This document shows, piece by piece, positions 33,174-62,644 of a stretch of 64,000 nucleotides of DNA (position 1 is its first letter; each line of letters opens with the position of its first letter). Position numbers and translations under genes: made by a program. The stretch spans positions 50,441-114,440 of the forward strand of contig JBFGLM010000009.1 in the NCBI GenBank assembly GCA_041576165.1, written 5' to 3'. The notes below the pieces were generated by a model. The model worked only from the letters and a program-made list of their open reading frames with translations, made no database searches and was not told the DNA's origin. Source of the stretch: Acidimicrobiia bacterium. GTDB lineage: Bacteria; Actinomycetota; Acidimicrobiia; Spongiisociales; Spongiisociaceae.

Positions 33174-33201
33174 AGCGCTCCCCGTCCCCAGAAACCGTGA
33201 C

Positions 33202-33506: not shown

Positions 33507-34340
33507 TCAGCTTGATCGAGCAGTGTTTCGAGCCGTGACCTGTTCGGAGGGAAACGCGCCTGCTATCCCGCCGTAGAGGCCGAGTGCGATGTCGGCGCCT
33601 GACGTCGCCCCGGCTGCGGCGAGCCGTTGACATGCCGCCTCGCACTCACCTGCGTCACCGGCGATCGCCGCCGTAAAGATCTCGTGGACGGGAGCGATGG
33701 CTTGTCCGACGGCCGCACCGCGGAGGTAGGCCAGGCTGATGGTGCTCGTCAGGTGTTGAGCCTCCCGGCCGATCTCCCAGCTGCCCGGGGCGAGCCGTCC
33801 CAAGGCCACCGAGGCCACCAGGAAACCGGCGATCACATCATCGCCCGCGGGCGTAAGCCCAGGACCGAAACCGAGCAGGCTCCCGCGAGCGTCGAGGTCG
33901 AGCGGGTCGGCAGCCCGCGACAGTCGCGACAGGCGTGCCGAATAGGGCGGGGCCATCAGCGCCGACGCCTGTGCGTGCGGGGCAAGCGCCGTCGTGAGTA
34001 TGGGACTGGCCGCGGCTACTCGAGCAGGGTGCGGCAGCCGGCCAACCCACGATGCGCCACCGGCCAGATCCACACGCCGGCCGTCTAGTTTGATCCGGTC
34101 GCCGGTGACCGGCATTTCGCTTCCGGGCTCCGCCTGCAGTTGATCGGCTGTGGTCGTGACGTGGATCGGACCCGGTGGAACGTCCCGGCTCGTCAGCACG
34201 ATCACCTCATCACCGGATTGTGCGTACACGGCCCGCGGGAAAGCTGCGATCACCCGCCACGGCCCCATCATCCGTCGCAATGCCGTCATGGCCATGGAAC
34301 CGATTGTCGTGGCTGTGACCGAGGTATTGGGGAGCATCAC
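33507..34340 (-). CDS. DUF2877 / YlbF (AllH-like) protein
   Basis: LLGFGPGLTPAGDDVIAG, TSTIS, GATSGADIALG. Confidence 0.85.
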   Translation of the reverse strand: MMLPNTSVTATTIGSMAMTALRRMMGPWRVIAAFPRAVYAQSGDEVIVLTSRDVPPGPIHVTTTADQLQAEPGSEMPVTGDRIKLDGRRVDLAGGASWVGRLPHPARVAAASPILTTALAPHAQASALMAPPYSARLSRLSRAADPLDLDARGSLLGFGPGLTPAGDDVIAGFLVASVALGRLAPGSWEIGREAQHLTSTISLAYLRGAAVGQAIAPVHEIFTAAIAGDAGECEAACQRLAAAGATSGADIALGLYGGIAGAFPSEQVTARNTARSS

Positions 34341-35764
34341 GCCAGCTTCTCATCGAGCGCCAGGAGAGCATCCCGGAACACGGACATTGGAGCCACAGCC
34401 ACGCCGGCCCCCACCTGGCCGCTGCCGTCCGACTTGTGGAGGATGCCCGTGTTGATGGCAGGGGCGATCTGCAACTCGATCACCTTCCGCACGTCGACCC
34501 CGACAGGCGTGCCGGCGTAATCGAGCACCGGCAGTGTGAACCGGGAGCTGCGCCCCAGTGCGATGTGCGCCATCTCCTCGGTCACAGCCCGGGCGTCGGC
34601 CATGGTGCCGCCCACGAATGCTGCCACCGCCGGAGCGCCCGCCGCCGCGGGTCCCCCGAGTCCGATCAGCTCCAGCACGGCGCTGTCCCCGATGTCGGGA
34701 GCGCTCGACTCGGGCCCGTAGCCCGAGTAGTACATCGCATGCTCAACCGGCGGAGCGGATGCGGTGAACCAGCCATCACCGGCCCCTGTCACCTGCACGC
34801 CGAACGTGGTGCCGTTCCTGGCCATGGTGACAACTGCGCTGGAGTCTGGGACTTCGCTTGCCCACGCAGTCGTCACCTTGGCGGCGGCCATCGCGATGTT
34901 GAGGAAGAACAGGTGGTTACTGCTCCAGTAGCGGGCGAATTCGGACAAGCCGGCATGGGCGGTCTCGACCAGATCGGCGAACAGACTCCGAAGCAACAGG
35001 TTCCCGGTTGCCTGGGTCCGCATGTGGAGGTCGTCGCCCATCTGCACACCCTGGGCGGCCAGGGCGAAGACGTTGACCGGCTCGGCGGTCCGCAGCGCGG
35101 CGGCGAGCAGCGGGCCCCCTACGTCGGCGAGCCACCGCAAGCGATCCACCGCCTCGGGGGCGTCGACCCCGAACCAGGCGGTCCTGCCCGGGCCCTGGTT
35201 GAGCGGCGAGAACGCCCGGCGATCGTCCATGCCGACCACAAACATGGGAGTGGACGGGCCCATCGCCGACGCCATCGGCACCACCGTGGAGTGATGGTTG
35301 GCGGAACCCAGCGTGACGCGGCCTCCGGCCACCAGGCCGGACGCTTCCTCGTGATCTGCGGCCCAGCCTTCGGCCAATATGGCGGCGAGCACCGACCGGC
35401 GCAGAGGATCGCAGAAGTCCGGCCAGTCGAGCGGCGGTCCACAATGCAGGATCGTGCGGTCCGTCATGTTCGGAACGACTTCGCGAGCGGGCCGCACATC
35501 CGTCAACAGCGGCGTCGCAGTATCCAGGCGGCGGAAGACCTCGGCATTTGCCCGGTCGATGCGCTCGGCGTGTTGTCCGAACAGCCGGGTCAGCGCGGCG
35601 ATCGCCGCCTCGTCGCCGGCGGCCGGAATTCGCCAATCCACCGAGACGACTTCGTGGCCCTGGGCGCGCACAGCCTCGGCGAGGAGGTCGAGACCGACGT
35701 TCACCACCCGCACCTCCTGCGGCAGACGGGGCGGTGTCGGCTGGTCGATAAACTCGTCACTCAT
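34337..35764 (-). CDS. DUF1116 / YlbE-YahG (AllG-like) protein with fused N-terminal VNVGL..VDW segment
   Basis: ILHCGPP, MGDDLHMR, FFLNIAMA, MARNGTTFG, PDIGDSA, PAINTGILH, GQVGAG. Confidence 0.9.
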   Translation of the reverse strand: MSDEFIDQPTPPRLPQEVRVVNVGLDLLAEAVRAQGHEVVSVDWRIPAAGDEAAIAALTRLFGQHAERIDRANAEVFRRLDTATPLLTDVRPAREVVPNMTDRTILHCGPPLDWPDFCDPLRRSVLAAILAEGWAADHEEASGLVAGGRVTLGSANHHSTVVPMASAMGPSTPMFVVGMDDRRAFSPLNQGPGRTAWFGVDAPEAVDRLRWLADVGGPLLAAALRTAEPVNVFALAAQGVQMGDDLHMRTQATGNLLLRSLFADLVETAHAGLSEFARYWSSNHLFFLNIAMAAAKVTTAWASEVPDSSAVVTMARNGTTFGVQVTGAGDGWFTASAPPVEHAMYYSGYGPESSAPDIGDSAVLELIGLGGPAAAGAPAVAAFVGGTMADARAVTEEMAHIALGRSSRFTLPVLDYAGTPVGVDVRKVIELQIAPAINTGILHKSDGSGQVGAGVAVAPMSVFRDALLALDEKLA

Positions 35765-36140
35765 GCGAACGGTTTCCTCCGTGTGGGAGGGTGATTATCG
35801 ATGCCGCGTGTTCGTGCGGGATTTCGAGCTGGTGGTCGACGAACCCACCGAGGTCGGCGGCACCAATACCGGACCCCGTCCGACTGAATTGATGTTGTCC
35901 GCCGTCGCCTCCTGTTTCGCACTCGCGATTGCCCACGTGGCCCGCAAGCACGACCGGCCGCTCGATGATCTGCAGGTCACCGCCTCTGGCGAGTACGACG
36001 GGCCCCGTTTCAGCAAGGTGTCGGTCATCGCGTCGTCCGCGATCCCCCAGGAGGACCTGCAATGGCTGGCCGATCGCGCCAGCCGCGTCTGCTACGTCTC
36101 GAACTCGTTGGGGTGCGACTTCGCTTATCGGGTCGAGTGA
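35763..36140 (+). CDS. OsmC family protein, antisense within the minus-strand operon
   Basis: VDEPTEVGGTNTGPRPTELMLSAVASCF...CYVSNSL. Confidence 0.85.
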   Translation: MRTVSSVWEGDYRCRVFVRDFELVVDEPTEVGGTNTGPRPTELMLSAVASCFALAIAHVARKHDRPLDDLQVTASGEYDGPRFSKVSVIASSAIPQEDLQWLADRASRVCYVSNSLGCDFAYRVE

Positions 36141-36141
36141 C

Positions 36142-37644
36142 TCAGACAGCACCTGCTACCGCCTTCGTGCGTTCCACAACGTCATGCTCGGCCTGGTCGA
36201 AGAGGTCGATGAACCGGCGGGCCCGTTCTCGGGCTGAGGTTGCCGTCTCGCGCACGTGACCCGCCATCCCAACGACTAGATCCGGCTTAGCTCCGCCCTG
36301 ACCATGCCGGGTCTGGACTATTTTGCGCGGATCGAGCACATCCCGCAGATCGACGTCTCGGAGGCCGATCGGGGAGCCCAGGATTTCGGCGGCAGCCTCG
36401 TCGATCAGCTCGCCCGTCATGTCGACCCCCCGCATTCCGGCGGCGCTCGCCCTCCGCACCGCGTTGCCAACCACCCGGTAGGCAGTCCGATAGTCGACGC
36501 CGGCCTCGAGCATCACTACCTCGGCCAGGTCGGTGGCCTGAGAAAAGCCGCCCTCGAGTTCGCTGTACAGGCGGGCGCGGTTGACCGATACGGTCGAGAC
36601 GACCTCGCGCATGAGCTCCGTGACCCGGAGGGCGAGATCCATCGCGCGGGGCACCTCGCCATAGGCGTAGATGTAGTTGTCGCTCCGCGCCGAGGGTGTC
36701 TTGATCACAGAGAGGAATCCGGCCAACCGCCCGATCAGCACCCCTGATGCGCCCCGCACGATCGACAGCGCGTACGGGTTTCGCTTCTGGGGCATCAGCA
36801 CGCTGGCCCGGGTGTACGGCCCGGCCAGATCGACGTAGTCGAACTCGGGGCTGGCCCAGATCTCGAGGTCCTCAGCGAGCTTGCTCTGATTCGAGACCAG
36901 GCTGGTAGTCGTCGACAAGACCGAGACCAACACGTCGGTCTGCCACATTGCGTCTCGGGTGTGTTCGATGATGCCTTCGAACCCGAGTGCATGGGCAAGG
37001 ACCTGGCGATCGGCCAGCAGCCGCGTGCCGTTGACACAGCCGGCCCCGCCGGGGCTGAGGTTCACCGACTGGAGCTCCGAGATGAGGCGCTCGATGTCGC
37101 GCAGCGCCGGCGGGGCAAATCCCAGCACGTAATGGCCGAACGTCGAGGGCTGGGCATGCTGTAGATACGTCTGATCCGGCATGTAGGTTTCGGCGTGATC
37201 AACCGCCAGATCGGCGAGCGCCAGGGCGAAATCGGCGCCGGCGCGAGCGACGTTCGCGCCCATCCGGCGCAGCACCACCCGCATGGCCACACGGGCGGCT
37301 TCCCGTCTCGGACGTCCGGCGTGGAGCCAGCCGGTTGCGTCTCCGATCTGAGCGGTGAAGTGCCGTTCCCGGCAGTTGTACGTCTCGCCGTAGGCAGGGT
37401 CGTAGGGAAACTCGTCCGCCGGGGTGGCGTGGGCATCGAGCAGTACCCGGGCAAGGTCGCGGAGAGCCGGCTTGGGCACCAGGTCGCGGGCCGCCAGGTC
37501 GAGGATGTGAGCCATGTCGGCCAGGTTGAGGCCGTGATGGAGGAACGGTGCGTCGTCGATCTCGGTCGCGAACCCGGCATCGATCAGCGTCTGTGCCGGA
37601 GCGAGGGAGGAGGGCCCTGCCAGCCGGTTGGTTACCTCGGTCAC
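36142..37644 (-). CDS. Argininosuccinate-lyase-like enzyme; candidate XcbC-type CoM biosynthesis lyase
   Basis: LHAGRPRRE, TYLQHAQP, ASVLMPQKRNP, ATDLAE; operonic with comA. Confidence 0.85.
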   Translation of the reverse strand: MTEVTNRLAGPSSLAPAQTLIDAGFATEIDDAPFLHHGLNLADMAHILDLAARDLVPKPALRDLARVLLDAHATPADEFPYDPAYGETYNCRERHFTAQIGDATGWLHAGRPRREAARVAMRVVLRRMGANVARAGADFALALADLAVDHAETYMPDQTYLQHAQPSTFGHYVLGFAPPALRDIERLISELQSVNLSPGGAGCVNGTRLLADRQVLAHALGFEGIIEHTRDAMWQTDVLVSVLSTTTSLVSNQSKLAEDLEIWASPEFDYVDLAGPYTRASVLMPQKRNPYALSIVRGASGVLIGRLAGFLSVIKTPSARSDNYIYAYGEVPRAMDLALRVTELMREVVSTVSVNRARLYSELEGGFSQATDLAEVVMLEAGVDYRTAYRVVGNAVRRASAAGMRGVDMTGELIDEAAAEILGSPIGLRDVDLRDVLDPRKIVQTRHGQGGAKPDLVVGMAGHVRETATSARERARRFIDLFDQAEHDVVERTKAVAGAV

Positions 37645-38609
37645 ATCGAATCCTTTCGCACGACCGCCTCGAGGATGGTCGCAGTGCCACCGGTATGCCA
37701 GAAGATGACCGGGCCACGGAGGTCGCCGGCCAGGCCCACCAAGGCGGCGAACGCTTTCGCCGTGTAGATGGGATCGAGCAGGAGCGACTCAGCGCGCCGG
37801 GCGAGGACGGCCGCGGCGACGGCCTTCCCCCACACCTTTCCATACCCGGGACCGCGGGCATCGACCACGTCAGGGACGTTCGATGGAGCCGAATTTCCGG
37901 CGAGGTCGCTGCACTCTTCGGCAAGCTGGTGGATCCGAGAGATGGCCTCGTCCTGGCTGCGGCTGACGGAGGCACCGACTAATGGCCAGTCGGCTCCAAC
38001 GGCGGAAAAGCCCGAGACGATCCCGGCCAGCGTGCCTCCGGACCCCACCGGAACCATTATCGCGGCGGGTTCAATGGCGGCTGTCCGGAGCTGGTCCGCC
38101 AGCTCGGTTGCGGCCCGGTGATAGCCCAGTGCCCCAACTGCGGTAGCTCCGCCGCGGGGAATGATGTACGGCGTGCCCCCGGCCGCTGCGATCTCGCTCG
38201 CCCGCGTACGCGCCAGCTCATCGACCGTTGACCGGTCCGGGTTGCCGGTGAAGTGAGCCACCGCCCCGCTCTCCTCCGCCAGTCGGAGGTTCACAGGGGG
38301 TGCGTCGGGTCGGCTCCCGTAGAGGATCAGCTCGCAGTCGAGCCCGAGCACTTCGGCGGCTGCAGCTGTGGTCTGGCACAGATTGGAGCGGGGTCCGCCG
38401 CACACGAGGATGGACGTCGCGTCAATCTCGCAGGCATCCGCCAGCAGAAACTCGAGCTTGCGGACCTTGTTCCCGCCCAGGCTGAAACCGGTCAGGTCGT
38501 CGCGCTTGATGTGAAGCGCCACGAGCCCGAGCCGCTCTGCGAGCCTGGGTGCGGGGTGCAGCGGCGTCGGATAGAGGCCGAGAGAAAGCGGCTCGACGTG
38601 CCCATTCAT
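37641..38609 (-). CDS. PLP-dependent D-cysteine desulfhydrase/ACC deaminase family; candidate XcbE
   Basis: PTPL, IKRDDLTG, GGNKVRKLEF, SN, GSGGTLAG, LDPIYTAKA, WHTGG. Confidence 0.9.
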   Translation of the reverse strand: MNGHVEPLSLGLYPTPLHPAPRLAERLGLVALHIKRDDLTGFSLGGNKVRKLEFLLADACEIDATSILVCGGPRSNLCQTTAAAAEVLGLDCELILYGSRPDAPPVNLRLAEESGAVAHFTGNPDRSTVDELARTRASEIAAAGGTPYIIPRGGATAVGALGYHRAATELADQLRTAAIEPAAIMVPVGSGGTLAGIVSGFSAVGADWPLVGASVSRSQDEAISRIHQLAEECSDLAGNSAPSNVPDVVDARGPGYGKVWGKAVAAAVLARRAESLLLDPIYTAKAFAALVGLAGDLRGPVIFWHTGGTATILEAVVRKDSM

Positions 38610-39979
38610 GGCCACTCGTCAGACTCGTCCTGGCGCTCGGTGGTCGCACGAGCGACCGCCAGGTCGACCATCTCCGCCGCTGCATGTACCGGAGGCGTGT
38701 CCAACAGCTCCTCGATCGCCTCGAGAGTCAGGTGCTCGGCGAGTGCGGGTTGGGACAGGATGGTTTCTTTCAAGTCACGCCCTGCCGACCAGCCGTCGCG
38801 CAGCGCGCTGAACAGCGCGTCCTGGGCACGGTGCTTGCCCAGCGATGTTGCCAGGGTTGCCAGTACCGCTTCTGATGCCCAGTAACCTCGAGTCTGATCG
38901 AGGTTGCGCCGCATGGCGTGCGGATCGACGTCGAGACTGCCCACGAGGTCCCGAGTGATCCGCAGCGAGGCACCCGTCAGGAGGCAGATCTCGGGAAACG
39001 CCACCCACTCCACCTTCCATCCTCGCCCGTCACGCTCGTGGCTCTGTACCGATCCGTCCAGAATCGTCTGCGCATGGGAACGGATCAGCCGCCCGAGGGT
39101 GACGAGGTGCTCGGATCCTTCCGGGTTGCGTTTGTGGGGCATAGTGATGCTGCCGACCGCCGCTGTGGAGCCGGCTTCGCCGAACTCGCCGATCTCCGGA
39201 CGTTGGAGCTCATAGATTTCGTCGCCGATCCGAGCGAGGGTTGTGGCGATCATCGCCATGAGCAGACTGAATTCGACGACCCGGTCGCGGGTGGTCGTCC
39301 AGGAGACCACGGGGTCGAACAGCCCCAGCAGGCTGCAGTAATCGGCGCGTACCGCCAGGCCGTGGTCGCCGAAGAACGCAAGAGTGCCGACAGAACCGGC
39401 GAGTTGGCCGACCAGCCACCTGGTCTGACCCTCTCTCAACCGATGCAGGTGACGACGTATCTCGTCGGCCCAGGTTGCGATTTTGAAGCCGGCCGTGATC
39501 GGGGACCCAATCTGTCCGTGTGTCCGGCCGGCCATGACCGTGGATCGGTGGCGGACCGCCATATCGAGGAGGTCCTTCTCGATTGCGCGCAGGTCGCGCC
39601 ACGCGACGGCGCCCATTCGTTTCATCGTCAGTGCGGCCCACGTGTCGGTGATGTCCTGCACGGTGGCGCCGTAGTACACGTACTGCGAGACGTCGGGAGG
39701 CAGCACCTGCTCGAGTCCCCGAATCAGGCCCAGCGTGGAATGAGACGTCGCCCGGGTTTCGGCTGCGATGTAGTCGAGGTCGAGACGATCCGTGTGGGCG
39801 TGGGTCGCGATCTGGGCGGCGGCTGCGTGCGGGATCAGCCCGTTCTTCGCCTGCGCATCGGCAAGCGCTACCAGGATGTCAAGCCAGGCGTCCAACCGCC
39901 CGGCCTCGCTGAAATGATCGCGCAACTCGTCCGTTCCCCAGAGGTGCGCATACATGCTGGAGTCAGCGATGCGGGACAT
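38606..39979 (-). CDS. Adenylosuccinate-lyase/PcaB-like enzyme; candidate XcbD
   Basis: GATVQDITDT, MAGRTHGQ, GSITMPHKRNP, HERDG. ATG 39979. Confidence 0.87.
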   Translation of the reverse strand: MSRIADSSMYAHLWGTDELRDHFSEAGRLDAWLDILVALADAQAKNGLIPHAAAAQIATHAHTDRLDLDYIAAETRATSHSTLGLIRGLEQVLPPDVSQYVYYGATVQDITDTWAALTMKRMGAVAWRDLRAIEKDLLDMAVRHRSTVMAGRTHGQIGSPITAGFKIATWADEIRRHLHRLREGQTRWLVGQLAGSVGTLAFFGDHGLAVRADYCSLLGLFDPVVSWTTTRDRVVEFSLLMAMIATTLARIGDEIYELQRPEIGEFGEAGSTAAVGSITMPHKRNPEGSEHLVTLGRLIRSHAQTILDGSVQSHERDGRGWKVEWVAFPEICLLTGASLRITRDLVGSLDVDPHAMRRNLDQTRGYWASEAVLATLATSLGKHRAQDALFSALRDGWSAGRDLKETILSQPALAEHLTLEAIEELLDTPPVHAAAEMVDLAVARATTERQDESDEWP

Positions 39980-39980
39980 G

Positions 39981-40892
39981 TCACCGTGGCGACGGGTCGA
40001 CCGGCTGCGAGGCCTCGGCTCGGGGGGAGCTCGACGCACTCCCGGCCAGCGCGACTGCGGCCTCCAGCCCGGCCCGCACGCCGTCCAGCGTCGATCCCCA
40101 AGGAACGTAAACCGTGCCACTGCGCACTTCCATGCCCGATTCGAGCAAGCAGCATTTTGTGAGGATGACTGCGCCATCGGGTGCTGGCCGCCGCTTCGGG
40201 CAGAAATCGACGATCGGAGCGGCCTCGCCGTAGAACCACGTGTGGATCTGCTGAGACCGGGTGCAGCCAATCAAGGTCCAGTCGCGCTTGGGAGGGCGCT
40301 GATCGAGATAACTGATGTCGGCGCGGCCTCGGTCGGACGCCGCGCCCGCACACGGTAGGAGGTACGGACCGTCTCCCACGATGAGGGCGTCCAGATCCTG
40401 GATGTCGGCGATCAGCCGGATCGGGGGGAGATCCTCGGAGACGTCGATGATCCGTTGTGCTTGGTTCAACAACTTCGCCGGATGGGGTGGAGTCACGTCC
40501 CGTATGACGATCTCCAGGGGTTGGGGATCCACGATGAAGCTCACATGTTCATATGCGCCGACGACGACGACGCAGCGCCTGCCCGGCGCCTCTCGGTGGG
40601 CGACCGCCGCCAGGTTCGACGGGATGCCCGTATCGAGGTCGGGATCCCGAACCAGAACGGTTTCTTCAGGACTGGCGACCAGCTCCACCCGAGTCACGGG
40701 GGAGAACAGTGGCTCCTCCGAAGCCTTGTCTACCGCGATCAGCGCGGTGTCGTCGCCGGAGATCACCACGATGTATGACGTACGTCGGTACACCTCACGC
40801 CCGGTGAAGAATTGTTCCAGCGCGTCGGGGTGGAGATCGAAATCGACTTCGGACACGGCAACGTTGCGGTACTGGTCGGGAGTGAGGTTCAT
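39981..40892 (-). CDS. Uncharacterised Cys/His-rich protein
   Basis: 303-aa ORF tightly linked on both sides (ATGA overlap with comA, 1-nt gap to the lyase). Motifs EHVSF, LPC, GCTRSQQIH, FCP, KCCLLE. Confidence 0.8.
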   Translation of the reverse strand: MNLTPDQYRNVAVSEVDFDLHPDALEQFFTGREVYRRTSYIVVISGDDTALIAVDKASEEPLFSPVTRVELVASPEETVLVRDPDLDTGIPSNLAAVAHREAPGRRCVVVVGAYEHVSFIVDPQPLEIVIRDVTPPHPAKLLNQAQRIIDVSEDLPPIRLIADIQDLDALIVGDGPYLLPCAGAASDRGRADISYLDQRPPKRDWTLIGCTRSQQIHTWFYGEAAPIVDFCPKRRPAPDGAVILTKCCLLESGMEVRSGTVYVPWGSTLDGVRAGLEAAVALAGSASSSPRAEASQPVDPSPR

Positions 40893-41665
40893 GAGGCGTC
40901 GCCGCCCGGGGTCAAACCCTCGCCGAGCGTGTCGGCCCGGAGGCCGCGCCGGAGCGCCTCGAGCGCCAGCACTCCGTCGGGTGCAATGTTGCCGAGGGAC
41001 ACATTGGATCCGAACGCACGGATGAAGGCGACCTGCTGATGCGTTTGGGGAGCTTCGAACACGACCCGATCGAGCGGGACTGCGTTGACAATGGAATCAA
41101 CGATGTTCCAGCGCAGTGATCCGTCTGATGAGTAGAGACCCGCAGTGCCGCTCTGCCTGCCCTCGGCGATGAGCCAGCTGGCGCCCGCGTCGAGGTCCTC
41201 GCTCATCTCGTGTGCCCAGGTTTCTGGTTCCATCGTCTCGGAGGGATCCTTGCTGCCGGCTTCGGCCAACACCTGGAACCGGCCGGAGGCCCGCTCGATC
41301 AGCTCTCGTTTGGCCGCCCGACCTATGCGGCCGAGGCTGTCGGAGACCTCGAGGCACGGGAACCCGATATCTCGCGCCCAGGCGAGACATTCGTCGGTGC
41401 TCGACTCCAGCCAGGCCGCTTCGAGTAGCGTGCCGCCAACACAGGCGAGGACGCCAGCGTCCCGAAGGAGCTGCACCTTCTTGTCGATGGTTGGGTCGAG
41501 AAAGCTCGTTCCAAACCCGAACTTCCAGATGTCGGTGTACTCGGCGGTGACGTCGAGCAATCCCCGGACGTGCTCGATGGGGACGCCCGTGTCGATGACG
41601 TGGGTGAGCCCCGACAGGCGCGGCTTCGCCGTGCGGTCGCGCCGGCCAACCGACCAGGGCGTCAC
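40889..41665 (-). CDS. comA: Phosphosulfolactate synthase (ComA/XcbB family)
   Basis: KPRLSGLTHVIDTG, DIWKFGFGTS, GGTLLE, EVSD, EAGSKD, EGRQSG, FEAP, FGSNVSLGNI, LEALRRGLRADT. AGGAG SD before GTG 41665. Confidence 0.92.
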   Translation of the reverse strand: MTPWSVGRRDRTAKPRLSGLTHVIDTGVPIEHVRGLLDVTAEYTDIWKFGFGTSFLDPTIDKKVQLLRDAGVLACVGGTLLEAAWLESSTDECLAWARDIGFPCLEVSDSLGRIGRAAKRELIERASGRFQVLAEAGSKDPSETMEPETWAHEMSEDLDAGASWLIAEGRQSGTAGLYSSDGSLRWNIVDSIVNAVPLDRVVFEAPQTHQQVAFIRAFGSNVSLGNIAPDGVLALEALRRGLRADTLGEGLTPGGDAS

Positions 41666-41779
41666 GTGCCGTCTCCTATACTCAACGTCTGTGCACTTTA
41701 CTACCATCGTAGAGCGGCCAACCGGGGTCCGACCGGACCGGTGCACCCTGGGTTCATGCTACGAGCCCTGCAGTCTCCC

Positions 41780-42730
41780 ATGACCGACCTGGAGCACGTG
41801 GTCGCCGCGTTCCGTGACCATGCCGGGGTTGCCCAGAAAGCGCCGATCCGGGTTGTGTCCGACCTGGTGGGCACGAGCGATTGGCTCACAGGGCCCGGTG
41901 ACGACGCGGCGTTCGTGCCGACGGGCGGCGGGCGCATCGTCGTCGGAGGCGAGGCCATGTTTCCGCCTTTCGTCGACGCCGACCCTCGCGGAGCCGGCTT
42001 TGCGGCGGTACTCACCAACGTGAACGACCTGGCGGCAATGGGGGCGGTGCCGCTCGGCATTCTGGATACGATCGTGGGGCCGGCAGATGTGGCGCAGCTG
42101 GTCCTCGCCGGAATGCGTGACGCCAGCGCCATGTACCAGGTGCCGATCATCGGCGGTCATCTGACGGTGCGCGATGGGCCGGCGGCGGTTTCGGCGTTTG
42201 GTATTGGAGAGGCGAGCGAGCTGCTGTCGGTGCGCAACGTCGAGCCGGGCCAGGCCATTCTCCTGGCGTGCGCACTGGACGGAACCATGCGAGAAGATTT
42301 CCCCTTCTTCGCCTCTTTCGAGCAGCGGCGTGATCAGATGGCCGGGGACGTGCGCACGCTGGCCGAGGTCGCCCGCTCCAAAGGAGCAGCGGCTGCCAAG
42401 GACGTGAGCATGGCCGGGCTGCTTGGATCGCTCGCCATGTTGCTGGAGGCACGTCAGGCGGGCGCCCTCGTCGACCTCGGGGCGATCCCGGTACCGGTCG
42501 GGGTGCCGATCGAGCAGTGGCTCATCTCGTTCCCGGCCTATGCCTTCTTGCTTTGTACAGACCGAAGTCTCGTCGATCATTGTCGCCGTCCCTTCCTGGA
42601 CCGGGGGCTGACGTGCGATGTGATTGGTGAGGTGACCGATTCGGGAGCGCTCGTGGTAGCAAGCGGAGACGTGCGCGCAACGGTTGTGCAGTTCCCGGAT
42701 GACGCGTTGACCGGAATCGCCCCCCTGTAG
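41780..42730 (+). CDS. AIR-synthase-related (PurM/ThiL/HypE fold) protein, Sll0787/NitF type
   Basis: GPGDDAA, NVNDLAAMGAVP, IIGGHL, KDVSMAGLLGS. Confidence 0.88.
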   Translation: MTDLEHVVAAFRDHAGVAQKAPIRVVSDLVGTSDWLTGPGDDAAFVPTGGGRIVVGGEAMFPPFVDADPRGAGFAAVLTNVNDLAAMGAVPLGILDTIVGPADVAQLVLAGMRDASAMYQVPIIGGHLTVRDGPAAVSAFGIGEASELLSVRNVEPGQAILLACALDGTMREDFPFFASFEQRRDQMAGDVRTLAEVARSKGAAAAKDVSMAGLLGSLAMLLEARQAGALVDLGAIPVPVGVPIEQWLISFPAYAFLLCTDRSLVDHCRRPFLDRGLTCDVIGEVTDSGALVVASGDVRATVVQFPDDALTGIAPL

Positions 42731-42740
42731 AGTCCAGCGG

Positions 42741-43268
42741 CTACGGCGTGAGCGGGATCCGCATCAGTTGGTGCATCACGCCGTAGGCGGGTGCCGGTTG
42801 CCCGTCCTGGTGCCAGCCGAGGTGCTCGAAGAACCGGACGTTCGAGAGCTGCACGGTCGCGATCATCTCCGCACCCCCGAGCCGGCCGGCCGTGCGCACT
42901 GCGGTCTGGACCAGGCGCTTGCCCACGACCATCCGGCGGAACGCCGGAAGGACGGCGAGCCGGTCGCCCTTCCACAGCCCGTCATCATCGATCGGATAGA
43001 TCCTGACGGTGCCGGCGGCGACGCCCTGCACATCGGCCACGAGGTGGACGGACGATTCGTCGCGGTCGTGGGCGTCTTCGTCTGTGCCCGCAAAGATCTC
43101 CTGTTCGACGACGAAGACCTCGTGCCGGAGCCGGGCGCATATCGATCGTTCCTCAGACGTTGCCGCAGGGCGGCACACAACCTCGGGCCGCCCTCTGGTG
43201 AGCGGCTCGAGGTCAATTGACGGATCGAACGGGGATACGAGTTCGGTCGCGGTCCGCTGACGGCTCAC
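42741..43268 (-). CDS. GNAT N-acetyltransferase, MSMEG_0567/Sll0786 (NitE) type
   Basis: LRHEVFVVEQEIF..D.DAHD, GTVRI, RLAV, ATVQLSNVRFF. Confidence 0.88.
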   Translation of the reverse strand: MSRQRTATELVSPFDPSIDLEPLTRGRPEVVCRPAATSEERSICARLRHEVFVVEQEIFAGTDEDAHDRDESSVHLVADVQGVAAGTVRIYPIDDDGLWKGDRLAVLPAFRRMVVGKRLVQTAVRTAGRLGGAEMIATVQLSNVRFFEHLGWHQDGQPAPAYGVMHQLMRIPLTP

Positions 43269-44385
43269 GGCGGCGGTACTCCTCTTCGATCAGGCTCATC
43301 CCGGAGCATGCCTGGCACCGGGCGCAGCCGGCCGAGACGGTCCAGGATCCGATTCCCCGATCCACCAGGTAGGGCACGACCCGGCGATAGATCGATTCCG
43401 TGTACGCGGCATCTGGCGGCAGCAGGTCCTCGAGCAGGCTTCCTGGAACGGGCCGGAGCGGGACAATGAACGGGTAGACCCCCATGTCGATCGCCCGTTT
43501 GCAGCCCGCCACGGTCAGGTCGGGATCCTCGCCCATCCCCAGAATCACATAGGTCGATACCTGGCCTTCACCAAAGACGTCGACCGCTCGCTCCCAGGCC
43601 GCGAAGTACCCCTCGATTCCGGTTCGCGCCTTCGGCGGCGCCACATTCGCGAGCGTCTTGGGATCGAATGATTCGACATGAATCCCGACTGCACCGACAC
43701 CCATGTCGCGGAGCCGATCGAGGGTGTCGAGGTCGTCGGGCGGCTCAAACTGAGCCTCGACCGGAAGACCGCTGGCGTCGTGCATTGCCTGGGCGCACTT
43801 GCCCAAGTAGAGCGCGCCCTTGTCGTGTCCGTACGTGCTGCCCGTCGTCAGCGTGATGTCGACTGCACCGTCGAGCTCCTTGGCCGCCACGGCCACCTCA
43901 GCCAGATGCTCCGGGCGCTTCGCCGGGATCGTGTTGCCGGACTCGAGCGACAGCTCGATCCCGCAGAACTTGCATTGATCGCTCGTGTTCCAGTAGGCGC
44001 ATTTCTGGACAACCGTGCTGGCTAATGAATCCAGATGCAGCAGTGCGATCTTCCAGTATGGGATACCGTCTTCGGTGCTCATGTCGTAGAACTTGGGCCG
44101 CGGGGCGACTTCCGCCGATGCCAGACGTTCCGGTCCTTTGAAGATGCCCCAGCTACCCAGCAGATCCTGGCGCAACACGTACGGCGAGTCCTTGACGAAA
44201 TCTGCGCCTACCGGTGCGGTGACGTAGACGCCTTCGATGCTGATCATCCCGGCGTCGGATGGCCCGGCGCCGCCGACGCGGGTGGTATCGGCGCTGCGCT
44301 CGATGCGCAGGCCGACACTCTGGATGTCTGCGATCAGCGGCGCCAGCTCGGGCCGCATCGCGGAATGGCTACCAGGCTGCGCCAT
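43213..44385 (-). CDS. Radical SAM protein, MSMEG_0568 (NitD) family
   Basis: GGAGPSD, DGIPYWKIALLH, atypical Cx8CxxC (CAYWNTSDQCKFC), GVYPFIVP, C-terminal GCARCQACS. Confidence 0.92.
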   Translation of the reverse strand: MAQPGSHSAMRPELAPLIADIQSVGLRIERSADTTRVGGAGPSDAGMISIEGVYVTAPVGADFVKDSPYVLRQDLLGSWGIFKGPERLASAEVAPRPKFYDMSTEDGIPYWKIALLHLDSLASTVVQKCAYWNTSDQCKFCGIELSLESGNTIPAKRPEHLAEVAVAAKELDGAVDITLTTGSTYGHDKGALYLGKCAQAMHDASGLPVEAQFEPPDDLDTLDRLRDMGVGAVGIHVESFDPKTLANVAPPKARTGIEGYFAAWERAVDVFGEGQVSTYVILGMGEDPDLTVAGCKRAIDMGVYPFIVPLRPVPGSLLEDLLPPDAAYTESIYRRVVPYLVDRGIGSWTVSAGCARCQACSGMSLIEEEYRRREPSADRDRTRIPVRSVN

Positions 44386-45229
44386 AGAGCTCCTCGAAGT
44401 TTTGATGGAACACCCGGTTCTTCAGCTCCTCGCTGACGTCGGTGCCCTCGATCTTCCAGTACTCGCCCCAGAAGTCGCTCCAAGGCTCATCCGAGGCGAA
44501 CAGCACCCGGTCCTCGCCGACCCCCCGCTTCTCGATTTCGTGGAGCAACCACCGGGTGCCGAACCCGACGGTCCAAGTCGTATCGGCATAGACCTTGTAG
44601 CCCTCTTCAACCCAGTCGAGGAAGCGGGGCACCAGTTTGATGTGCCCGCTCACGCCACCGCCGAAATGTACAAGGTACATCTTCACGCGTTTGCCGTACT
44701 CCTCGACCAGGGGGATGTAGTTGTTGATGTCCGACCCGCCGCCGGGGCTCGTGTGGAAGTGGAACACCAGGTCGTGCTCTTCGGCCGCATCGAAACAAGC
44801 ATCCGCCACTTCGCGCGTGTCATCGTCCCATTCGTTCGGGTTCGGGTTTCCGCCCAGGAGGAACGTCGTCTTGAGTGCGACCACCCGGCCCTCGCCGGCA
44901 TGGCCGAGCGATTCGAGCGTCATGTCCTTGTTCTGTGGAAGGAACGAGACCCACAGCGCGCCCGCCAGCCGGTCGCTGGTCGTCACCGCGTCGAGCATGA
45001 CCTCGTTCAGCGAGAACGGCTGCGACTGGACGGGGATTCCGTAATTGGGGATCACCAGACCCCGCTCAACGCCATACGAATCCAGATGTTTGATATAGGC
45101 CGCCGTGTCCGGAAAGTCATAGACGGTGGGGCTCACCGGTTCCTTCAAGTCGTAGAACTGCCACGGTTCCATGGCGCCGATGTGGCTGTGTCCGTCGATC
45201 ACTGGTCGGGATACCTTCGGGGAACTCAT
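44369..45229 (-). CDS. Metal-dependent amidohydrolase (TIM barrel)
   Basis: IDGHSHIG, HFHT, VHFGGG, LFASDEPW. GGAGG SD. Confidence 0.88.
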   Translation of the reverse strand: MSSPKVSRPVIDGHSHIGAMEPWQFYDLKEPVSPTVYDFPDTAAYIKHLDSYGVERGLVIPNYGIPVQSQPFSLNEVMLDAVTTSDRLAGALWVSFLPQNKDMTLESLGHAGEGRVVALKTTFLLGGNPNPNEWDDDTREVADACFDAAEEHDLVFHFHTSPGGGSDINNYIPLVEEYGKRVKMYLVHFGGGVSGHIKLVPRFLDWVEEGYKVYADTTWTVGFGTRWLLHEIEKRGVGEDRVLFASDEPWSDFWGEYWKIEGTDVSEELKNRVFHQNFEELYGAAW

Positions 45230-45555: not shown

Positions 45556-46494
45556 ATGAGCACGGTGGTAGTGGCGCTCGGGGGCAACGCCCTCATCAAG
45601 CAGGGCGAGTCCGGCACGTACGAGGAACTCACAGCCAACGCCGATCAGATGGCGGCCGCGGTGGCCCAGGTCGCTGCGGCGGGGTTTCGTGTTGTCGTCA
45701 CTCACGGCAACGGGCCGCAGGTCGGAAACCTGGCCATCCAGCACCACCAATCGGCCGACACGGTCCCGGCGCTGCCCCTCCACCTGATCGGTGCGATGAC
45801 GCAGGGTTATCTCGGGAGCCTCATCGTGAGGGCGCTGGCCGATCGACTGCCGCAGCTCCGTGACCGATTGGTGGCGATCGTGACCCACGCACTGGTTGAT
45901 CTAGACGCGCCCGGCTCGGCCCAACCGACCAAGCCAATCGGACCATATCTGACGGCAGCCGAGGCAGAACAGGCCAGCGCGATGGGCTGGACGGTGGCGG
46001 AGGATGCGGGCCGCGGACTCCGCCGGATCGTCTCGTCTCCGCTGCCGCTGGGCATTGTGGAAGCTGCGGCGATCCGAACCCTCGTCGAGCAGGATTTTGT
46101 GGTGGTTGCCGGTGGCGGTGGCGGGATCCCGACCGCGGAGACGGACGCCGGGCTCGTAGGAGTGGATGCGGTGATCGACAAGGACCGACTGGCAGTGCAC
46201 ATCGCACGGTGCGTTGACGCCGACGCCCTGGCGCTGGTCACCAGCGTCGACCGGGTCTTGGTCGGTTTCGGGACGCCCGACCAACACCCCGTGGCCGAAC
46301 TCACGACGGCCGAGGCACGAACCCACCTCGCTGGCGGCGAGTTTCCGCCCGGAAGTATGGGTCCGAAGATAGAAGCTGCGATCGACTTCGTTGAAGGTGG
46401 AGGCGGCTACGCCATAATCACCTCGGCCGCCCGCCTGTCGGATGCCCTGGCCGGGGAGGGAGGCACTCGAGTGGTGAGTTCGTCCCGCCCATGA
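45556..46494 (+). CDS. arcC: Carbamate kinase
   Basis: VVALGGNAL, THGNGPQVG, PTKPIGP, GGGGIP, AVIDKD, GSMGPKIEA. Confidence 0.95.
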   Translation: MSTVVVALGGNALIKQGESGTYEELTANADQMAAAVAQVAAAGFRVVVTHGNGPQVGNLAIQHHQSADTVPALPLHLIGAMTQGYLGSLIVRALADRLPQLRDRLVAIVTHALVDLDAPGSAQPTKPIGPYLTAAEAEQASAMGWTVAEDAGRGLRRIVSSPLPLGIVEAAAIRTLVEQDFVVVAGGGGGIPTAETDAGLVGVDAVIDKDRLAVHIARCVDADALALVTSVDRVLVGFGTPDQHPVAELTTAEARTHLAGGEFPPGSMGPKIEAAIDFVEGGGGYAIITSAARLSDALAGEGGTRVVSSSRP

Positions 46495-48029
46495 GCAGCA
46501 GCGTTCGTGTCCTCGAGAACACCTATGTCGACTCCGTGAAGCTGCTGGCCGGCACGCGAGCGATTCTCGCAACCAGCGGCATCGAGTGGGGAGCGGTCCT
46601 CACCGGGACGCCTGCCAACCGTGAACTACTGATCGATGCTGGTTTCGATCCGGCGGAACTATCAGGCTTTGGCGCCAACGATCTCGTGATGGCGGCCCGT
46701 GGACGTGCTGCGGATGAGGGCTTTCAGGCGGCCGAGGAAGCGATGTTCGCAGGCCCATCGTCCGCCTCGAGTTTCGCCGGACCCGTCACCAGAAGCCTCG
46801 ACGAGTTCGCCGACGGCCGGCCGAGGCCCAATCTCGCAGTGATCTCGGTTGCCGGACCGTACGCGGCTCTCGAAGCGCACAAAGCACTCAGCGCCGAGAT
46901 GGACGTTCTGCTGTTCAGCGACAACGTACCTCTCGAAGACGAAGTCGCCTTGAAGGATCGGGCTGCCGCCCTTTCTCGATTCGTGATGGGACCGGGGGCC
47001 GGTACTGCCCTCATTGACGGAGTCGGTCTCGGCTTCGCCAACGCCGTCCGTCGGGGCAAGATCGGGGTGGTGGCGGCGGCCGGAACCGGCGCGCAAGAAG
47101 TGATGAGTTTGATCCATCGGGCCGGCCTGGGCGTCTCTCAGGTCATCGGCGTTGGTGGTCGGGACCTCGGTGAGGCGGTGGGAGGCCGGATGACCGCGCA
47201 GGCGATCAAAGCCCTCGAGGCGGATGAGGCCACACAGGTGATCCTGCTGGTTTCAAAGCCCCCGTCCCCAGAAGTCGCTGCCCGAATCCTGAATCGACCC
47301 GGCAGCAAGGCGCTGGTCGCGAGCTTGATCGGCCTCGACACCCCATTGGATGTGGCGCAGCATGTCATGGTTACCACCGATCTCGAGTCGGGTGTGGAGG
47401 CGGCAGTCGCAGCTGCGGGGGGCCGTTTCGAGCCCGCCTCGGCTGAGCTGGTGGAGTCGGTCGACGCGGTGGCCCTATCCATCGACGATGCACGATCGAC
47501 TATCCGAGGGTTGTTCTCGGGCGGCACGATGTGCTTCGAAGCGCTGACGCTGCTGGCCGAGCAAGGACTCTCGGTTCACTCCAACACCCCACTCCGTCCC
47601 GAGCTGTCGCTCGACGAGGCCGGACCCGACAGCCACATCTGCCTCGACCTGGGCGAGGAGGAGTACACGCGGGGGCGGCCGCATCCGATGATCGACCCCG
47701 AGGCGCGCGCCGAGCTGATCGTCCGAGAAAGTACGTTTCCGGAGACGGCGGTGGTAGTCATCGACGTCGTCCTCGGCTACGGCAGCCACCCGGACCCGGC
47801 CGGACAGCTGGCGCCGGCCTGCGCGGAGGTGACGGAGATCACAGGCGGGCCTCAGGTGATTGCGTACGTGCTGGGCACCGACGAAGACCCGCAGCGACTG
47901 ACCGACCAGCGCCGGAAGCTGGAGGAGGCCGGTTGCATCGTCGCGCCGACCAATGCCCGGGCCGCCCTGGCCGCCGCCGCGATCAGCCTGAGGCGCCCAG
48001 AGGTGGCCGGATTTCGGAGAGGGACATGA
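46491..48029 (+). CDS. fdrA: FdrA family protein (AllF-like, succinyl-CoA synthetase alpha-like)
   Basis: YVDSVKL, GTPAN, FSDNV, MGPGAGT, GFAN, GVGGRDL, GLFSGGT, DLGEEEYTRGRPHPMIDP, GYGSHPDP, GTDEDPQ. Confidence 0.92.
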   Translation: MSSSVRVLENTYVDSVKLLAGTRAILATSGIEWGAVLTGTPANRELLIDAGFDPAELSGFGANDLVMAARGRAADEGFQAAEEAMFAGPSSASSFAGPVTRSLDEFADGRPRPNLAVISVAGPYAALEAHKALSAEMDVLLFSDNVPLEDEVALKDRAAALSRFVMGPGAGTALIDGVGLGFANAVRRGKIGVVAAAGTGAQEVMSLIHRAGLGVSQVIGVGGRDLGEAVGGRMTAQAIKALEADEATQVILLVSKPPSPEVAARILNRPGSKALVASLIGLDTPLDVAQHVMVTTDLESGVEAAVAAAGGRFEPASAELVESVDAVALSIDDARSTIRGLFSGGTMCFEALTLLAEQGLSVHSNTPLRPELSLDEAGPDSHICLDLGEEEYTRGRPHPMIDPEARAELIVRESTFPETAVVVIDVVLGYGSHPDPAGQLAPACAEVTEITGGPQVIAYVLGTDEDPQRLTDQRRKLEEAGCIVAPTNARAALAAAAISLRRPEVAGFRRGT

Positions 48030-49201
48030 AGGTGGCGTTGGTCACCTACTCGACGAAGCCACGCGGCGGGGTCGTGCACACCTTGGAGTTGGGCGAAGCG
48101 CTGCTGGCCGCCGGGGTCGACGTTCATGTCATTGCGCTGGGCGATGAATCGGCCGGGTTTTTCCGGACGACCAACATACCCCACTCCTTCGTCCCGGCTC
48201 CAGCGTGGGCCGACACGCTCGATGAACGGGTATTCCGATCAGTTGACGCGCTGGCCGATGGGCTCCGCCGCCAGGTGGGCGCGTTCTCAGTCCTCCATAC
48301 CCAGGATTGCATCGCGGCCCGGGCCGCGGCCCGGGTCCGGGACGAGCTGGAGCCGGCGGACCCCAACCGGCCGGTGGTCATCCGGACGGTGCATCACGTG
48401 GACGATTTCACGACACAGGCGCTGATCGACTGCCAGCGCCAGGCCATCATCGAGCCGGATGAGCTGATTGTCGTGAGCCGCCAGTGGCAGAACATCCTTC
48501 TGGCCGAATTCGGGCGCAAGGCCACGGTCATCTACAACGGAGTCGATCCGGAGCGGCTGGCGCCGCCACCTGGTTTCGATCGCGCCCGCCTGCGGGCCGA
48601 GATCGGAGCGACGGCCCGGTTCCTATTCCTGACCGTCGGAGGTATCGAGCCCCGCAAAGCCACGCGAGAAATGTTCGAGGCCCTCGCCGAACTCAAGGCC
48701 ACGGCACCGGAGCCACCCATCCTGGCCATCATCGGGGGGCACTCCTTTCAGGACCATGCCGCATACCGAGAAGCGGCCCTGATGCGGGCCGAGGAACTGG
48801 GTTTGTCACTCGACCGGGATGTAGTACAGCTTGGCACTGTGTCGGACGCCGACCTGGCGGCCTGGTACCACGCGGCCGACGCCTTCCTGTTCCCCTCCGT
48901 GAAGGAAGGATGGGGTCTGGTCGCGATGGAAGCCCTCAGCGTCGGGTTACCCCTCATTGCGTCCGACATACCCGTGTTTCGCGAATACCTGGATCCGGAT
49001 GAGACCGCCCTGCTGGTGCCACCCGGCGATGTGGGGGCGCTGGCTGCGGCCATGAGGCGCCTGGTCGAGGATCCCGAAACCCGAATGCAGCTGGCGGCGG
49101 CCGGCCGGGAAATGGTCGAGCAGTTCACATGGCACGCCGCTGCGTCGCGACATCGATCTGTCTACGCCCGGATCGTCTCCGACGCCGGCCTGGCGGTGTG
49201 A
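48026..49201 (+). CDS. GT4 glycosyltransferase, MSMEG_0565 family
   Basis: YSTKPRGGVVHTLELGEAL, HTQDCI, RTVHHVDDF, GGIEPRK, GGHSFQD, PSVKEGWGL. Confidence 0.92.
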   Translation: MKVALVTYSTKPRGGVVHTLELGEALLAAGVDVHVIALGDESAGFFRTTNIPHSFVPAPAWADTLDERVFRSVDALADGLRRQVGAFSVLHTQDCIAARAAARVRDELEPADPNRPVVIRTVHHVDDFTTQALIDCQRQAIIEPDELIVVSRQWQNILLAEFGRKATVIYNGVDPERLAPPPGFDRARLRAEIGATARFLFLTVGGIEPRKATREMFEALAELKATAPEPPILAIIGGHSFQDHAAYREAALMRAEELGLSLDRDVVQLGTVSDADLAAWYHAADAFLFPSVKEGWGLVAMEALSVGLPLIASDIPVFREYLDPDETALLVPPGDVGALAAAMRRLVEDPETRMQLAAAGREMVEQFTWHAAASRHRSVYARIVSDAGLAV

Positions 49202-49217
49202 AGGCGTTCGCCGGCGG

Positions 49218-49823
49218 TCAGGTCGCCTTGATGGCGGCTATGGCGGTGAGCCATTCCCGTCGGTCGCCGAACTCGGTTCGATCGGGGCGGGCGTTCGTTC
49301 CGGCAAACTCACCGGTGGCGGGATCGAGCTGAAGCGTTTCGATGCCGTACAGCGGAAGGAACGTCGTGGGGTCGACATCGATGTACGTGTGCAGGCCAAG
49401 CCCGTCCGGCAAACGCATCTCGATACGGCGGAAGCCCGTCCCACCCGCACCACTCTCATCTCCGGTCTCGTCCAGCGTGATCCAGCCCTCGTCCGCCTGG
49501 GCGATGCGTCGTTCGGCCTCGGCCTTGGCCCGCTCGCCGGAAAGCTCCCGGTAGCGGCCGCTGAAGGCGGCGTCGATCAACAGCAGTGCCACCTCGGGGG
49601 AGGGAGGCGGCCTCTGCAAACTTTCAACCGCTGCTGCGAGCCGGTCGTGGCGCTCCGCATAGGCCGATACGAGATCATCGACGCTGGTTATGGCGGTGAG
49701 GTCATCGGTCATCGCCCGCACCAGTTCGAGATTTGCCTCGTACTGGTGCGGGTTGACGACGACCATCGGGTACAGCTTGGCTTCGGCCGCTCGCCATTGG
49801 CCGAGCAGAGCCTCTAGATCCAT
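49218..49823 (-). CDS. Hypothetical protein in the Nit1C-like operon
   Basis: ORF MDLEALLGQWRAAEAKLYPMVVVNP... with coding-like composition, downstream of the MSMEG_0572-like gene. Confidence 0.7.
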   Translation of the reverse strand: MDLEALLGQWRAAEAKLYPMVVVNPHQYEANLELVRAMTDDLTAITSVDDLVSAYAERHDRLAAAVESLQRPPPSPEVALLLIDAAFSGRYRELSGERAKAEAERRIAQADEGWITLDETGDESGAGGTGFRRIEMRLPDGLGLHTYIDVDPTTFLPLYGIETLQLDPATGEFAGTNARPDRTEFGDRREWLTAIAAIKAT

Positions 49824-62641: not shown

Positions 62642-62644
62642 GCG

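Follow-up and report, generated by a model that had tools for sequence, protein, structure and literature searches.

In the available part of its description (PMC9457059), the coenzyme M (CoM) pathway of Xanthobacter runs from phosphoenolpyruvate and sulfite via phosphosulfolactate, sulfoacrylate, 3-sulfopropionyl-cysteine and sulfoethanethioaldehyde to CoM, with the Fe-S protein XcbA as terminal reductase. The xcbABCDE genes of Xanthobacter autotrophicus Py2 are located on pXAUT01 in the order XcbA-XcbB-XcbC-XcbD-XcbE and follow the genes for epoxyalkane:CoM transferase (EaCoMT), 2-KPCC and a dehydrogenase. The available text of PMC11507031 names methanogens and aerobic alkene users as the only known carriers of CoM biosynthesis genes. 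The operon described here belongs to the same five gene families and lies in a 64,000-nucleotide stretch of an uncultured Acidimicrobiia bacterium (assembly GCA_041576165.1, contig JBFGLM010000009.1, positions 50,441 to 114,440). This whole stretch is called the window, and all unprefixed coordinates are counted from its first letter.

The window proteins are 36-42% identical to those of Py2 and share with them the XcbC- and XcbD-type loops and the XcbA cysteines. The gene order differs, being ComA-XcbA-XcbD-XcbE-XcbC in the window, and none of the three kinds of genes preceding xcb in Py2 was found in the window genome. The order is the same as in the CoM genes of two oxidisers of ethene and vinyl chloride, Nocardioides JS614 (pNOCA01) and Mycolicibacterium chubuense NBB4, whose proteins are 43-46% identical. 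However, the JS614 genes adjoin etnE, an alkene monooxygenase and a 2-KPCC-like gene, whereas those of the window adjoin Nit1C-type and AllFGH-type genes. The locus is a known pathway in an undescribed but conserved setting, all described cases adjoining alkene-degrading genes, and it suggests that the small sulfur cofactor CoM has an undescribed job. We consider it probable that this is a true xcb operon without a link to alkenes, most likely supplying a CoM-type thiol to the gene cluster that surrounds it. A literature search covering few subscription journals and no supplements returned nothing that connects CoM genes with Nit1C/gpr genes.

The five xcb genes and their housekeeping relatives

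Five translationally coupled open reading frames (ORFs) on the minus strand, between 36142 and 41746, encode homologues of ComA/XcbB, XcbA, XcbD, XcbE and XcbC:

41746..40889, minus strand: ComA/XcbB, phosphosulfolactate synthase family (PF02679, 5e-76; 40% identity to Xanthobacter XcbB)
40892..39981, minus strand: XcbA-family Cys-rich protein (NF052538, 310 bits, cut-off 150; DUF7714, 2.7e-84)
39979..38606, minus strand: XcbD-type lyase, 3-sulfopropionylcysteine synthase type, PurB-like fold (NF052536, 577.6 bits, against 276.7 for purB)
38615..37641, minus strand: XcbE-type pyridoxal phosphate (PLP) enzyme, D-cysteine-desulfhydrase family (best NCBIfam match NF052537, 264 bits)
37644..36142, minus strand: XcbC-type lyase, phosphosulfolactate phosphate elimination type, ArgH-like fold (NF052535, 419 bits, against 250.6 for argH)

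From comA to xcbC, the first two genes overlap by 4 nt, the next pair is 1 nt apart, and the last two pairs overlap by 10 and 4 nt, in agreement with an earlier note on this DNA, which had called the genes overlapping or 1 nt apart. All ORFs of that note were right, except that it started comA at 41665; the start is ambiguous between GTG 41746, ATG 41707 and GTG 41665, and may be one of the two upstream codons. ComA is a full-length match to PF02679 (positions 2-243 of 243) and scores 232 bits with the archaeal model TIGR03849, below its cut-off of 280. In XcbA, Cys181, 210, 231, 247 and 248 are invariant in 83 of 83 aligned rows (L087 dropped), and the protein is predicted to be the Cys-rich Fe-S protein of the CoM pathway, with a putative Fe-S cluster. 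XcbE carries a Lys50 that is invariant in 73 of 73 rows. Pfam identifies Lyase_1 in XcbD, PALP in XcbE, and Lyase_1 with ASL_C2 in XcbC. A PDB sequence search found no solved relative of XcbA, and for XcbC only argininosuccinate lyases. The order ComA-XcbA-XcbD-XcbE-XcbC recurs in 65 of the 69 related loci holding all five genes, so that the arrangement is more than chance, and xcbE stands between xcbD and xcbC in every related locus whose gene order was read.

The earlier note had recognised the composition of the CoM pathway and had looked to reciprocal BLAST, phylogeny and separate housekeeping argH and purB genes for its confirmation. Family scans, reciprocal tblastn, catalytic loops and trees all agree with it. 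Each of the five Py2 Xcb proteins, compared with the whole genome by tblastn, has the window gene as its best match. Py2 XcbC matches the window gene at 38% identity and 268 bits, against 116 bits for the ArgH locus of the genome. For Py2 XcbD, the window gene (42%, 296 bits) precedes a lyase on contig C38 (176 bits) and PurB (47 bits), and for XcbE (41%, 158 bits) the next match in the genome reaches 103 bits; XcbA and XcbB match their window counterparts at 36% and 40% identity. When window XcbC was compared by tblastn with plasmid-borne genes, its identity was 59.7% to a Methylocystis iwaonis gene, 46.6% to that of Nocardioides JS614, 45-49% for M. chubuense NBB4 and 38.3% for Py2. In comparison, true argH genes are about 30% identical.

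Housekeeping argH and purB are present elsewhere in the genome, on contigs C7 (467 bits, curated cut-off 279.5) and C51 (389 bits, cut-off 326.2), respectively. The window lyases remain under these equivalog cut-offs, with 250.6 bits on the argH model and 276.7 bits on the purB model. The C38 lyase mentioned above (C38:27266-28507) is a further PurB/XcbD-like protein, 39% identical to window XcbD. A further DcyD-like PLP enzyme, 35% identical to window XcbE, is found ~24 kb from it (C38:2244-3170).

On the curated Xcb models themselves, XcbD (577.6 bits, cut-off 600), XcbE (264 bits, cut-off 450) and XcbC (419 bits, cut-off 575) all score below the cut-off. Nocardioides JS614 uses CoM in ethene and vinyl chloride oxidation. 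Its XcbE (313 against 450) and XcbC (332 against 575) fall below the same NCBIfam cut-offs, and the window scores are for this reason no cause for worry; these 'exception' cut-offs are centred on Xanthobacter. The expectation of the earlier note that routine annotation would miss the pathway needs a correction for XcbA, which the Xcb models of NCBIfam release 20 would name. XcbC, XcbD and XcbE, being under the cut-offs, would still receive ArgH-like or PurB-like labels, and the RefSeq Methylocystis record is an example of this.

The catalytic loops were compared in alignments made in the present analysis. The loop of window XcbC, RASVLMPQKRNPY (R-A-S-V-L-M-P-Q-K-R-N-P-Y), is as in Py2 and JS614 XcbC, against GSSAMPQKKNPD in the ArgH of the genome. 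That of window XcbD, GSITMPHKRNPE, is common to Xanthobacter and JS614 XcbD, against GSSAMPHK in PurB. Where ArgH and PurB have GSS, the window loops read ASV (XcbC) and GSI (XcbD), the second Ser being replaced in both.

Trees were built by quick maximum likelihood (LG+G4), with support only from the Shimodaira-Hasegawa-like approximate likelihood ratio test (SH-aLRT). In the XcbC tree, which left out L072 and L069 for their odd length, 68 Xcb rows lie on one side of a long branch and ArgH on the other. The window clade is bracketed there by Py2, the JS614 group and an EaCoMT-linked clade. In the XcbD tree (without L099, L087 and L026), 79 rows form one group (SH-aLRT 93) that includes the window and is distinct from PurB and the C38 lyase. 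Judged by these comparisons, the operon is genuinely of the XcbB-XcbA-XcbD-XcbE-XcbC type.

The genomic setting and its recurrence

No EaCoMT or 2-KPCC gene was recognised in the genome by tblastn with Py2 epoxyalkane:CoM transferase, JS614 EtnE and Py2 2-KPCC, the best matches being MetE-like or flavoprotein genes of 24-31% identity on other contigs. JS614 EtnA, EtnB and EtnC have no match in the genome at E 1e-3, and the alkene monooxygenase family PF02332 gave none there, though control genomes gave none either. As the assembly consists of 161 contigs, is 96.5% complete and has 7.5% contamination, these genes are to be called 'not found' rather than 'absent'. Five other genomes with the same cluster contain EaCoMT matches of at best 24-27% identity (three genomes) or none (two). 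In alkene-type loci, by contrast, true EaCoMT lies beside xcb and is 69-78% identical to Xanthobacter XecA or 75-83% to JS614 EtnE. In our reading, the operon has no part in alkene or epoxide metabolism. The earlier note had placed it outside any alkene-oxidation context; no alkene or epoxide genes were found, but the operon is not free of context, as it is embedded in a Nit1C/gpr-type cluster.

This conserved cluster of ~19 kb contains Nit1C/gpr-type genes, AllFGH-like genes, carbamate kinase, an OsmC protein and a flavoprotein resembling coenzyme A disulfide reductase (CoADR). The genes around the operon, of which those from allH to the CoADR-like gene are single-copy in the genome, are:

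33507..34340, minus strand: AllH-like (DUF2877) subunit (PF11392, 8.5e-22), with a 4-nt overlap with allG
34337..35764, minus strand: AllG-like (DUF1116) subunit of oxamate-carbamoyltransferase type (PF06545, 2.4e-63)
35763..36140, plus strand: OsmC-family peroxiredoxin-like protein (PF02566, 9e-17), antisense between xcbC and allG
41756..42730, plus strand: sll0787-family AIR-synthase-like protein, divergent from comA (TIGR04049, 244.8 bits, cut-off 321.3)
42741..43268, minus strand: MSMEG_0567/Sll0786-family GNAT (TIGR04045, 103 bits, cut-off 68)
43213..44385, minus strand: MSMEG_0568-family radical SAM protein (TIGR04043, 372.9 bits, cut-off 303.7)
44369..45229, minus strand: Amidohydrolase_2 protein, at the place of the nitrilase in Nit1C clusters (PF04909, 2.7e-16)
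45556..46494, plus strand: carbamate kinase (TIGR00746, 330 bits; NF009007, 279.9 bits, cut-off 266)
46491..48029, plus strand: FdrA/AllF-like subunit with CoA-ligase and CoA-binding domains (NF004760, 407 bits, cut-off 433)
48029..49201 (approximate start), plus strand: MSMEG_0565-family GT4 glycosyltransferase (TIGR04047, 356.6 bits, cut-off 259.85)
49218..49823, minus strand: conserved 201-aa protein of no known family (no Pfam, NCBIfam or ESM Atlas match)
49846..50331, minus strand: MSMEG_0572/Sll0783-family nitrogen-starvation protein (TIGR04044, 214 bits, cut-off 110)
50758..52080, minus strand: CoADR/NADH-oxidase-family flavoprotein (TIGR03385, 236.6 bits, under cut-off)
52316..52945, minus strand: helix-turn-helix (HTH)-cupin regulator, PuuR-like, at the cluster edge (HTH_3 and Cupin_2; PuuR model 1.1e-18)

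The Nit1C/gpr systems are known as nitBCDEFGH in Pseudomonas, sll0783-0787 and MSMEG_0565-0572. The window has the MSMEG_0572, 0568, 0567, sll0787 and 0565 families, four of them over their NCBIfam cut-offs and the AIR-synthase-like protein below its own (244.8 against 321.3). The classical cluster includes the Nit6803 nitrilase, which is lacking on the window contig and replaced by the Amidohydrolase_2 protein, 66-89% identical across related clusters. The nitrilase of the Methylocystis cluster found no match by tblastn on the contig or in 54 related loci (best in the genome 32-33%, on contigs C66 and C15). Nor is a Pnap_2097 protein present on this contig. Nitrile hydratase alpha (PF02979) had no match in the genome, with none in the control genomes either. 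Compared with classical Nit1C/gpr clusters, the window adds AllFGH-like genes, carbamate kinase, OsmC, the CoADR-like gene and xcb. In E. coli, AllFGH is an oxamic transcarbamylase and AllK the catabolic carbamate kinase (available parts of PMC11326118 and PMC9843812). Homologues of all three subunits and of the kinase are found in the window, but here, unlike in E. coli, these genes are split over two operons around xcb, and FdrA remains under its cut-off (407 against 433).

Several proteins of the cluster carry conserved cysteines. In OsmC, Cys53 and Cys112 are invariant in 44 of 44 rows, as is Cys114 of the MSMEG_0572-family protein in 27 of 27. The latter is weakly DsrE-like (PF02635, E 6e-4, under cut-off) and found no solved relative in a PDB sequence search; in related subtype-B clusters (defined below), it is followed by homologues of the 201-aa protein. 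The CoADR-like protein has Cys42 in 24 of 27 rows, is 58-66% identical across orders, and has NoxA-3 6pfz (8e-57), CoADR 3kd9 and CoA-persulfide reductase 8a56 as best solved relatives. With the 'methanogenesis marker 2' model, too, the AIR-synthase-like protein scores 180 bits (5.8e-53), a second link to methanogen-type genes. The HTH-cupin regulator can be assigned to the cluster by position only. The consensus of the GlnR box (GTNAC-N6-GNAAC) has a single match in the window, located within xcbD, 1.17 matches being expected; this does not speak for control by GlnR. Promoter and terminator scans of 33000-52500 gave no more sites than shuffled sequences, and Rfam detects in the window only a tRNA at 7926-7998, leaving the cluster without an RNA element.

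Related loci were collected by an XcbA-alignment scan of one genome per species, which yielded 508 pattern matches and 472 confirmed relatives. The 80 of these 472 loci that are most like the window in XcbA were probed by tblastn with window proteins and with Py2 and JS614 alkene proteins. The nearest are metagenome-assembled genomes of Acidimicrobiia, with 64-68% identity in XcbA and up to 91% in neighbouring genes. One or more Nit1C/AllG-type markers occur in 54 of the 80 loci, and EaCoMT or 2-KPCC of at least 40% identity in 18; the remaining eight lack both, five of these being on contigs of <8 kb. In 24 of 34 loci, allG comes next after xcbC, in the same orientation and at most 300 bp away, and in eight more OsmC alone separates the two (32/34). 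The AIR-synthase-like gene is divergent from comA and adjacent to it in 32 of 36; in the window, 10-50 bp lie between them. Carriers of the cluster include strains of Pseudonocardia, Actinomycetospora, Blastococcus jejuensis and Kribbella (L042, L090, L074 and L085). Outside the phylum, a Methylocystis plasmid carries xcb and OsmC together with a classical Nit1C set that includes nitrilase and the Pnap_2097 protein. In one related locus (L110, G321:C1:1712229-1713075), the match to XcbA falls into two reading frames and that to ComA is short; the operon copy there may be degenerating, while the rest of the cluster is intact.

Since ranking by likeness to window XcbA favours the context of the window, an even sample of the phylum was drawn as well. 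XcbA occurs in 10 of its 400 other genomes, eight of them in one family. The window context is present in all seven XcbA loci with enough flank, and the other three lie on contigs of 3.4-6 kb on which nothing is visible; EaCoMT at at least 40% identity was found in none of the ten. The MSMEG_0572 family occurs in 15 of the 400 genomes, six of which also have XcbA, and the two genes are on the same contig within about 12 kb in all five genomes where coordinates reach. The nine MSMEG_0572 genomes without XcbA comprise five with the classical form, three with subtype B and one 6.8-kb fragment (L119). The five classical loci show a colinear 0572-radical SAM-GNAT-AIRS arrangement and have no AllG, FdrA, carbamate kinase, CoADR or OsmC.

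The operon forms a module in a conserved nitrilase-less Nit1C/gpr-type cluster, here named subtype B. It lies between the divergent AIR-synthase-like gene and allGH, in most relatives contiguous and co-oriented with allGH. The comparison with subtype-B clusters without XcbA indicates that xcb is a module located between the AIR-synthase-like gene and allG in part of these clusters.

Possible product and role

By homology to the Xanthobacter enzymes, the operon would convert phosphoenolpyruvate, sulfite and cysteine into CoM in five steps. ComA/XcbB would form phosphosulfolactate, from which XcbC would eliminate phosphate to give sulfoacrylate. XcbD is then expected to produce 3-sulfopropionyl-cysteine, which the PLP enzyme XcbE would turn into sulfoethanethioaldehyde, and XcbA, using its predicted Fe-S cluster, would reduce this compound to 2-mercaptoethanesulfonate, that is, CoM. 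As far as homology can tell, the product is most likely CoM, made for the surrounding cluster. The most likely role would be the supply of a dedicated small sulfonate thiol to the subtype-B cluster, in which OsmC (two invariant Cys), the CoADR-family flavoprotein (redox Cys) and the DsrE-like protein (one invariant Cys) form an intact thiol-redox set. In M. smegmatis, nitrogen starvation induces the gpr operon (MSMEG_0565-0572), which makes the cells resistant to peroxide, according to the available part of PMC6039565. In a methanogen, an increase in CoM protects from oxidative stress, as stated in the available part of PMC12713407.

Besides the ranking bias and the state of the assembly, several observations weigh against this reading of the operon. 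In the subtype-B clusters of three genomes of the even sample (L114, L115 and L117), the AIR-synthase-like gene and allG are immediate neighbours, and XcbA is missing from the whole of these genomes at E 1e-20. CoM is hence not obligatory for subtype B and would be an optional extra. One of them, L117, keeps both the CoADR-like gene and OsmC, which are therefore not tied to xcb. The CoADR-like gene had been considered as a CoM-specific reductase, and this candidate is weakened by its presence in that XcbA-less cluster. The XcbD proteins from the non-alkene context form a separate clade (53 rows, SH-aLRT 97), so that a shifted specificity is possible. For XcbE, the margin between NF052537 (264 bits) and the model of the D-cysteate sulfo-lyase CuyA (231 bits) is narrow, and its substrate specificity is only a prediction. 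Finally, CoM as the product rests on 36-42% identity to the characterised Xanthobacter enzymes.

The three XcbA-less subtype-B genomes contain ComA elsewhere, beside a fumarate-reductase-like flavin adenine dinucleotide (FAD) flavoprotein and a LysR regulator. Such ComA loci are L121:8432-12603, where an ATP sulfurylase is present as well, and L122:9927-12869. This ComA context is a different ComA-based sulfonate route.

Among other explanations of the operon, it is extremely improbable that its lyases and PLP enzyme simply duplicate ArgH, PurB and D-cysteine desulfhydrase and have the activities usual for these enzymes. The housekeeping argH and purB pass the curated cut-offs elsewhere in the genome, while the window lyases stay below them and score much higher on the Xcb models, share with XcbC and XcbD the replacement of the second Ser in the catalytic GSS loop, and are parted from ArgH and PurB by long branches; what speaks for spare copies is that Pfam sees only Lyase_1, ASL_C2 and PALP and that the closest solved structures are argininosuccinate lyases. 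Alternatively, the operon could supply CoM to a cryptic route of epoxide or alkene detoxification, whose transferase would be unassembled, located in an unrecovered contaminant-free part of the genome, or too diverged to be recognised. Alkene metabolism is the only bacterial use of CoM described in the available parts of PMC9457059 and PMC11507031, the genome is incomplete, and its three MetE-like genes are 24-31% identical to EaCoMT. Nevertheless, we regard such a route as very unlikely: the genuine EaCoMT of alkene-type loci is 69-78% or 75-83% identical to its references and stands beside xcb, no such gene is found here or in the five other carriers, no monooxygenase subunits (EtnA/B/C, PF02332) were found, and the alternative context is conserved across orders.

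Another possibility, to which we attach a limited but not negligible probability, is that the operon makes another sulfonate, or that an intermediate such as sulfoacrylate or 3-sulfopropionyl-cysteine is drawn off as a building block. The radical SAM, GNAT, AIR-synthase-like and GT4 enzymes encoded next to the operon would build that compound into a small metabolite. The operon is indeed embedded among biosynthesis-type genes, and the GT4 protein resembles the thiol-pathway glycosyltransferases MshA (4.8e-29) and BshA (1.1e-22); the separate XcbD clade and the closeness of the XcbE score to CuyA point in the same direction. Against this, all five genes are kept in the order of CoM-using JS614, including XcbA with its five invariant Cys, the XcbC tree nests the window context among alkene-linked sequences, and the signature loops are identical in both contexts.

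The interpretation of the operon as a source of a CoM-type thiol for subtype B gains weight from its distribution, the non-alkene context being the commoner one among relatives (54 against 18 of the best 80 of 472 loci, and seven of seven assessable loci in the even phylum sample). If CoM is really made, this would represent an unrecognised role of the cofactor in aerobic soil and marine Actinomycetota, reaching to a methanotroph plasmid. CoM or its gene markers would then no longer be signs of methanogenesis or alkene oxidation, and the long-unexplained Nit1C/gpr nitrogen-starvation genes would gain a concrete chemical partner.

A more specific proposal, a speculation from gene content that we consider unlikely, is that the nitrilase-less Nit1C subtype encodes a widespread nitrogen-starvation pathway of five steps, with CoM as its dedicated carrier thiol. 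One-carbon nitrogen units (cyano or carbamoyl) might be held on the CoM sulfur, as a CoM thiocyanate ester or S-carbamoyl-CoM, and the HypE/SelD-like AIR-synthase-family protein would interconvert both forms. The AllFGH-like enzyme would release carbamoyl phosphate, which carbamate kinase would convert to ammonia, CO2 and ATP, while the CoADR-like flavoprotein, OsmC and the DsrE-like protein would keep the thiol reduced. Were this so, it would represent a third physiological role for CoM and provide a chemistry for Nit1C-type clusters.

Elsewhere in the window

Outside the cluster, an alternate (N-type) F1F0 ATPase operon with beta, epsilon, A, B, alpha and gamma subunits is located at 56723-63517 on the plus strand, each gene matching best to the 'alternate F1F0' NCBIfam models. 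An ORF of 1411 aa at 8859-13094 (minus strand) weakly matches models for kinase/cyclase fusions and adenylate cyclases and probably encodes a large signalling regulator. A second OsmC-related gene at 17107-17781 (plus strand) adjoins a TetR-family regulator at 16526-17164, and an arsenite methyltransferase homologue is encoded at 26761-27555 on the plus strand (NF008823, 304 bits, cut-off 263).

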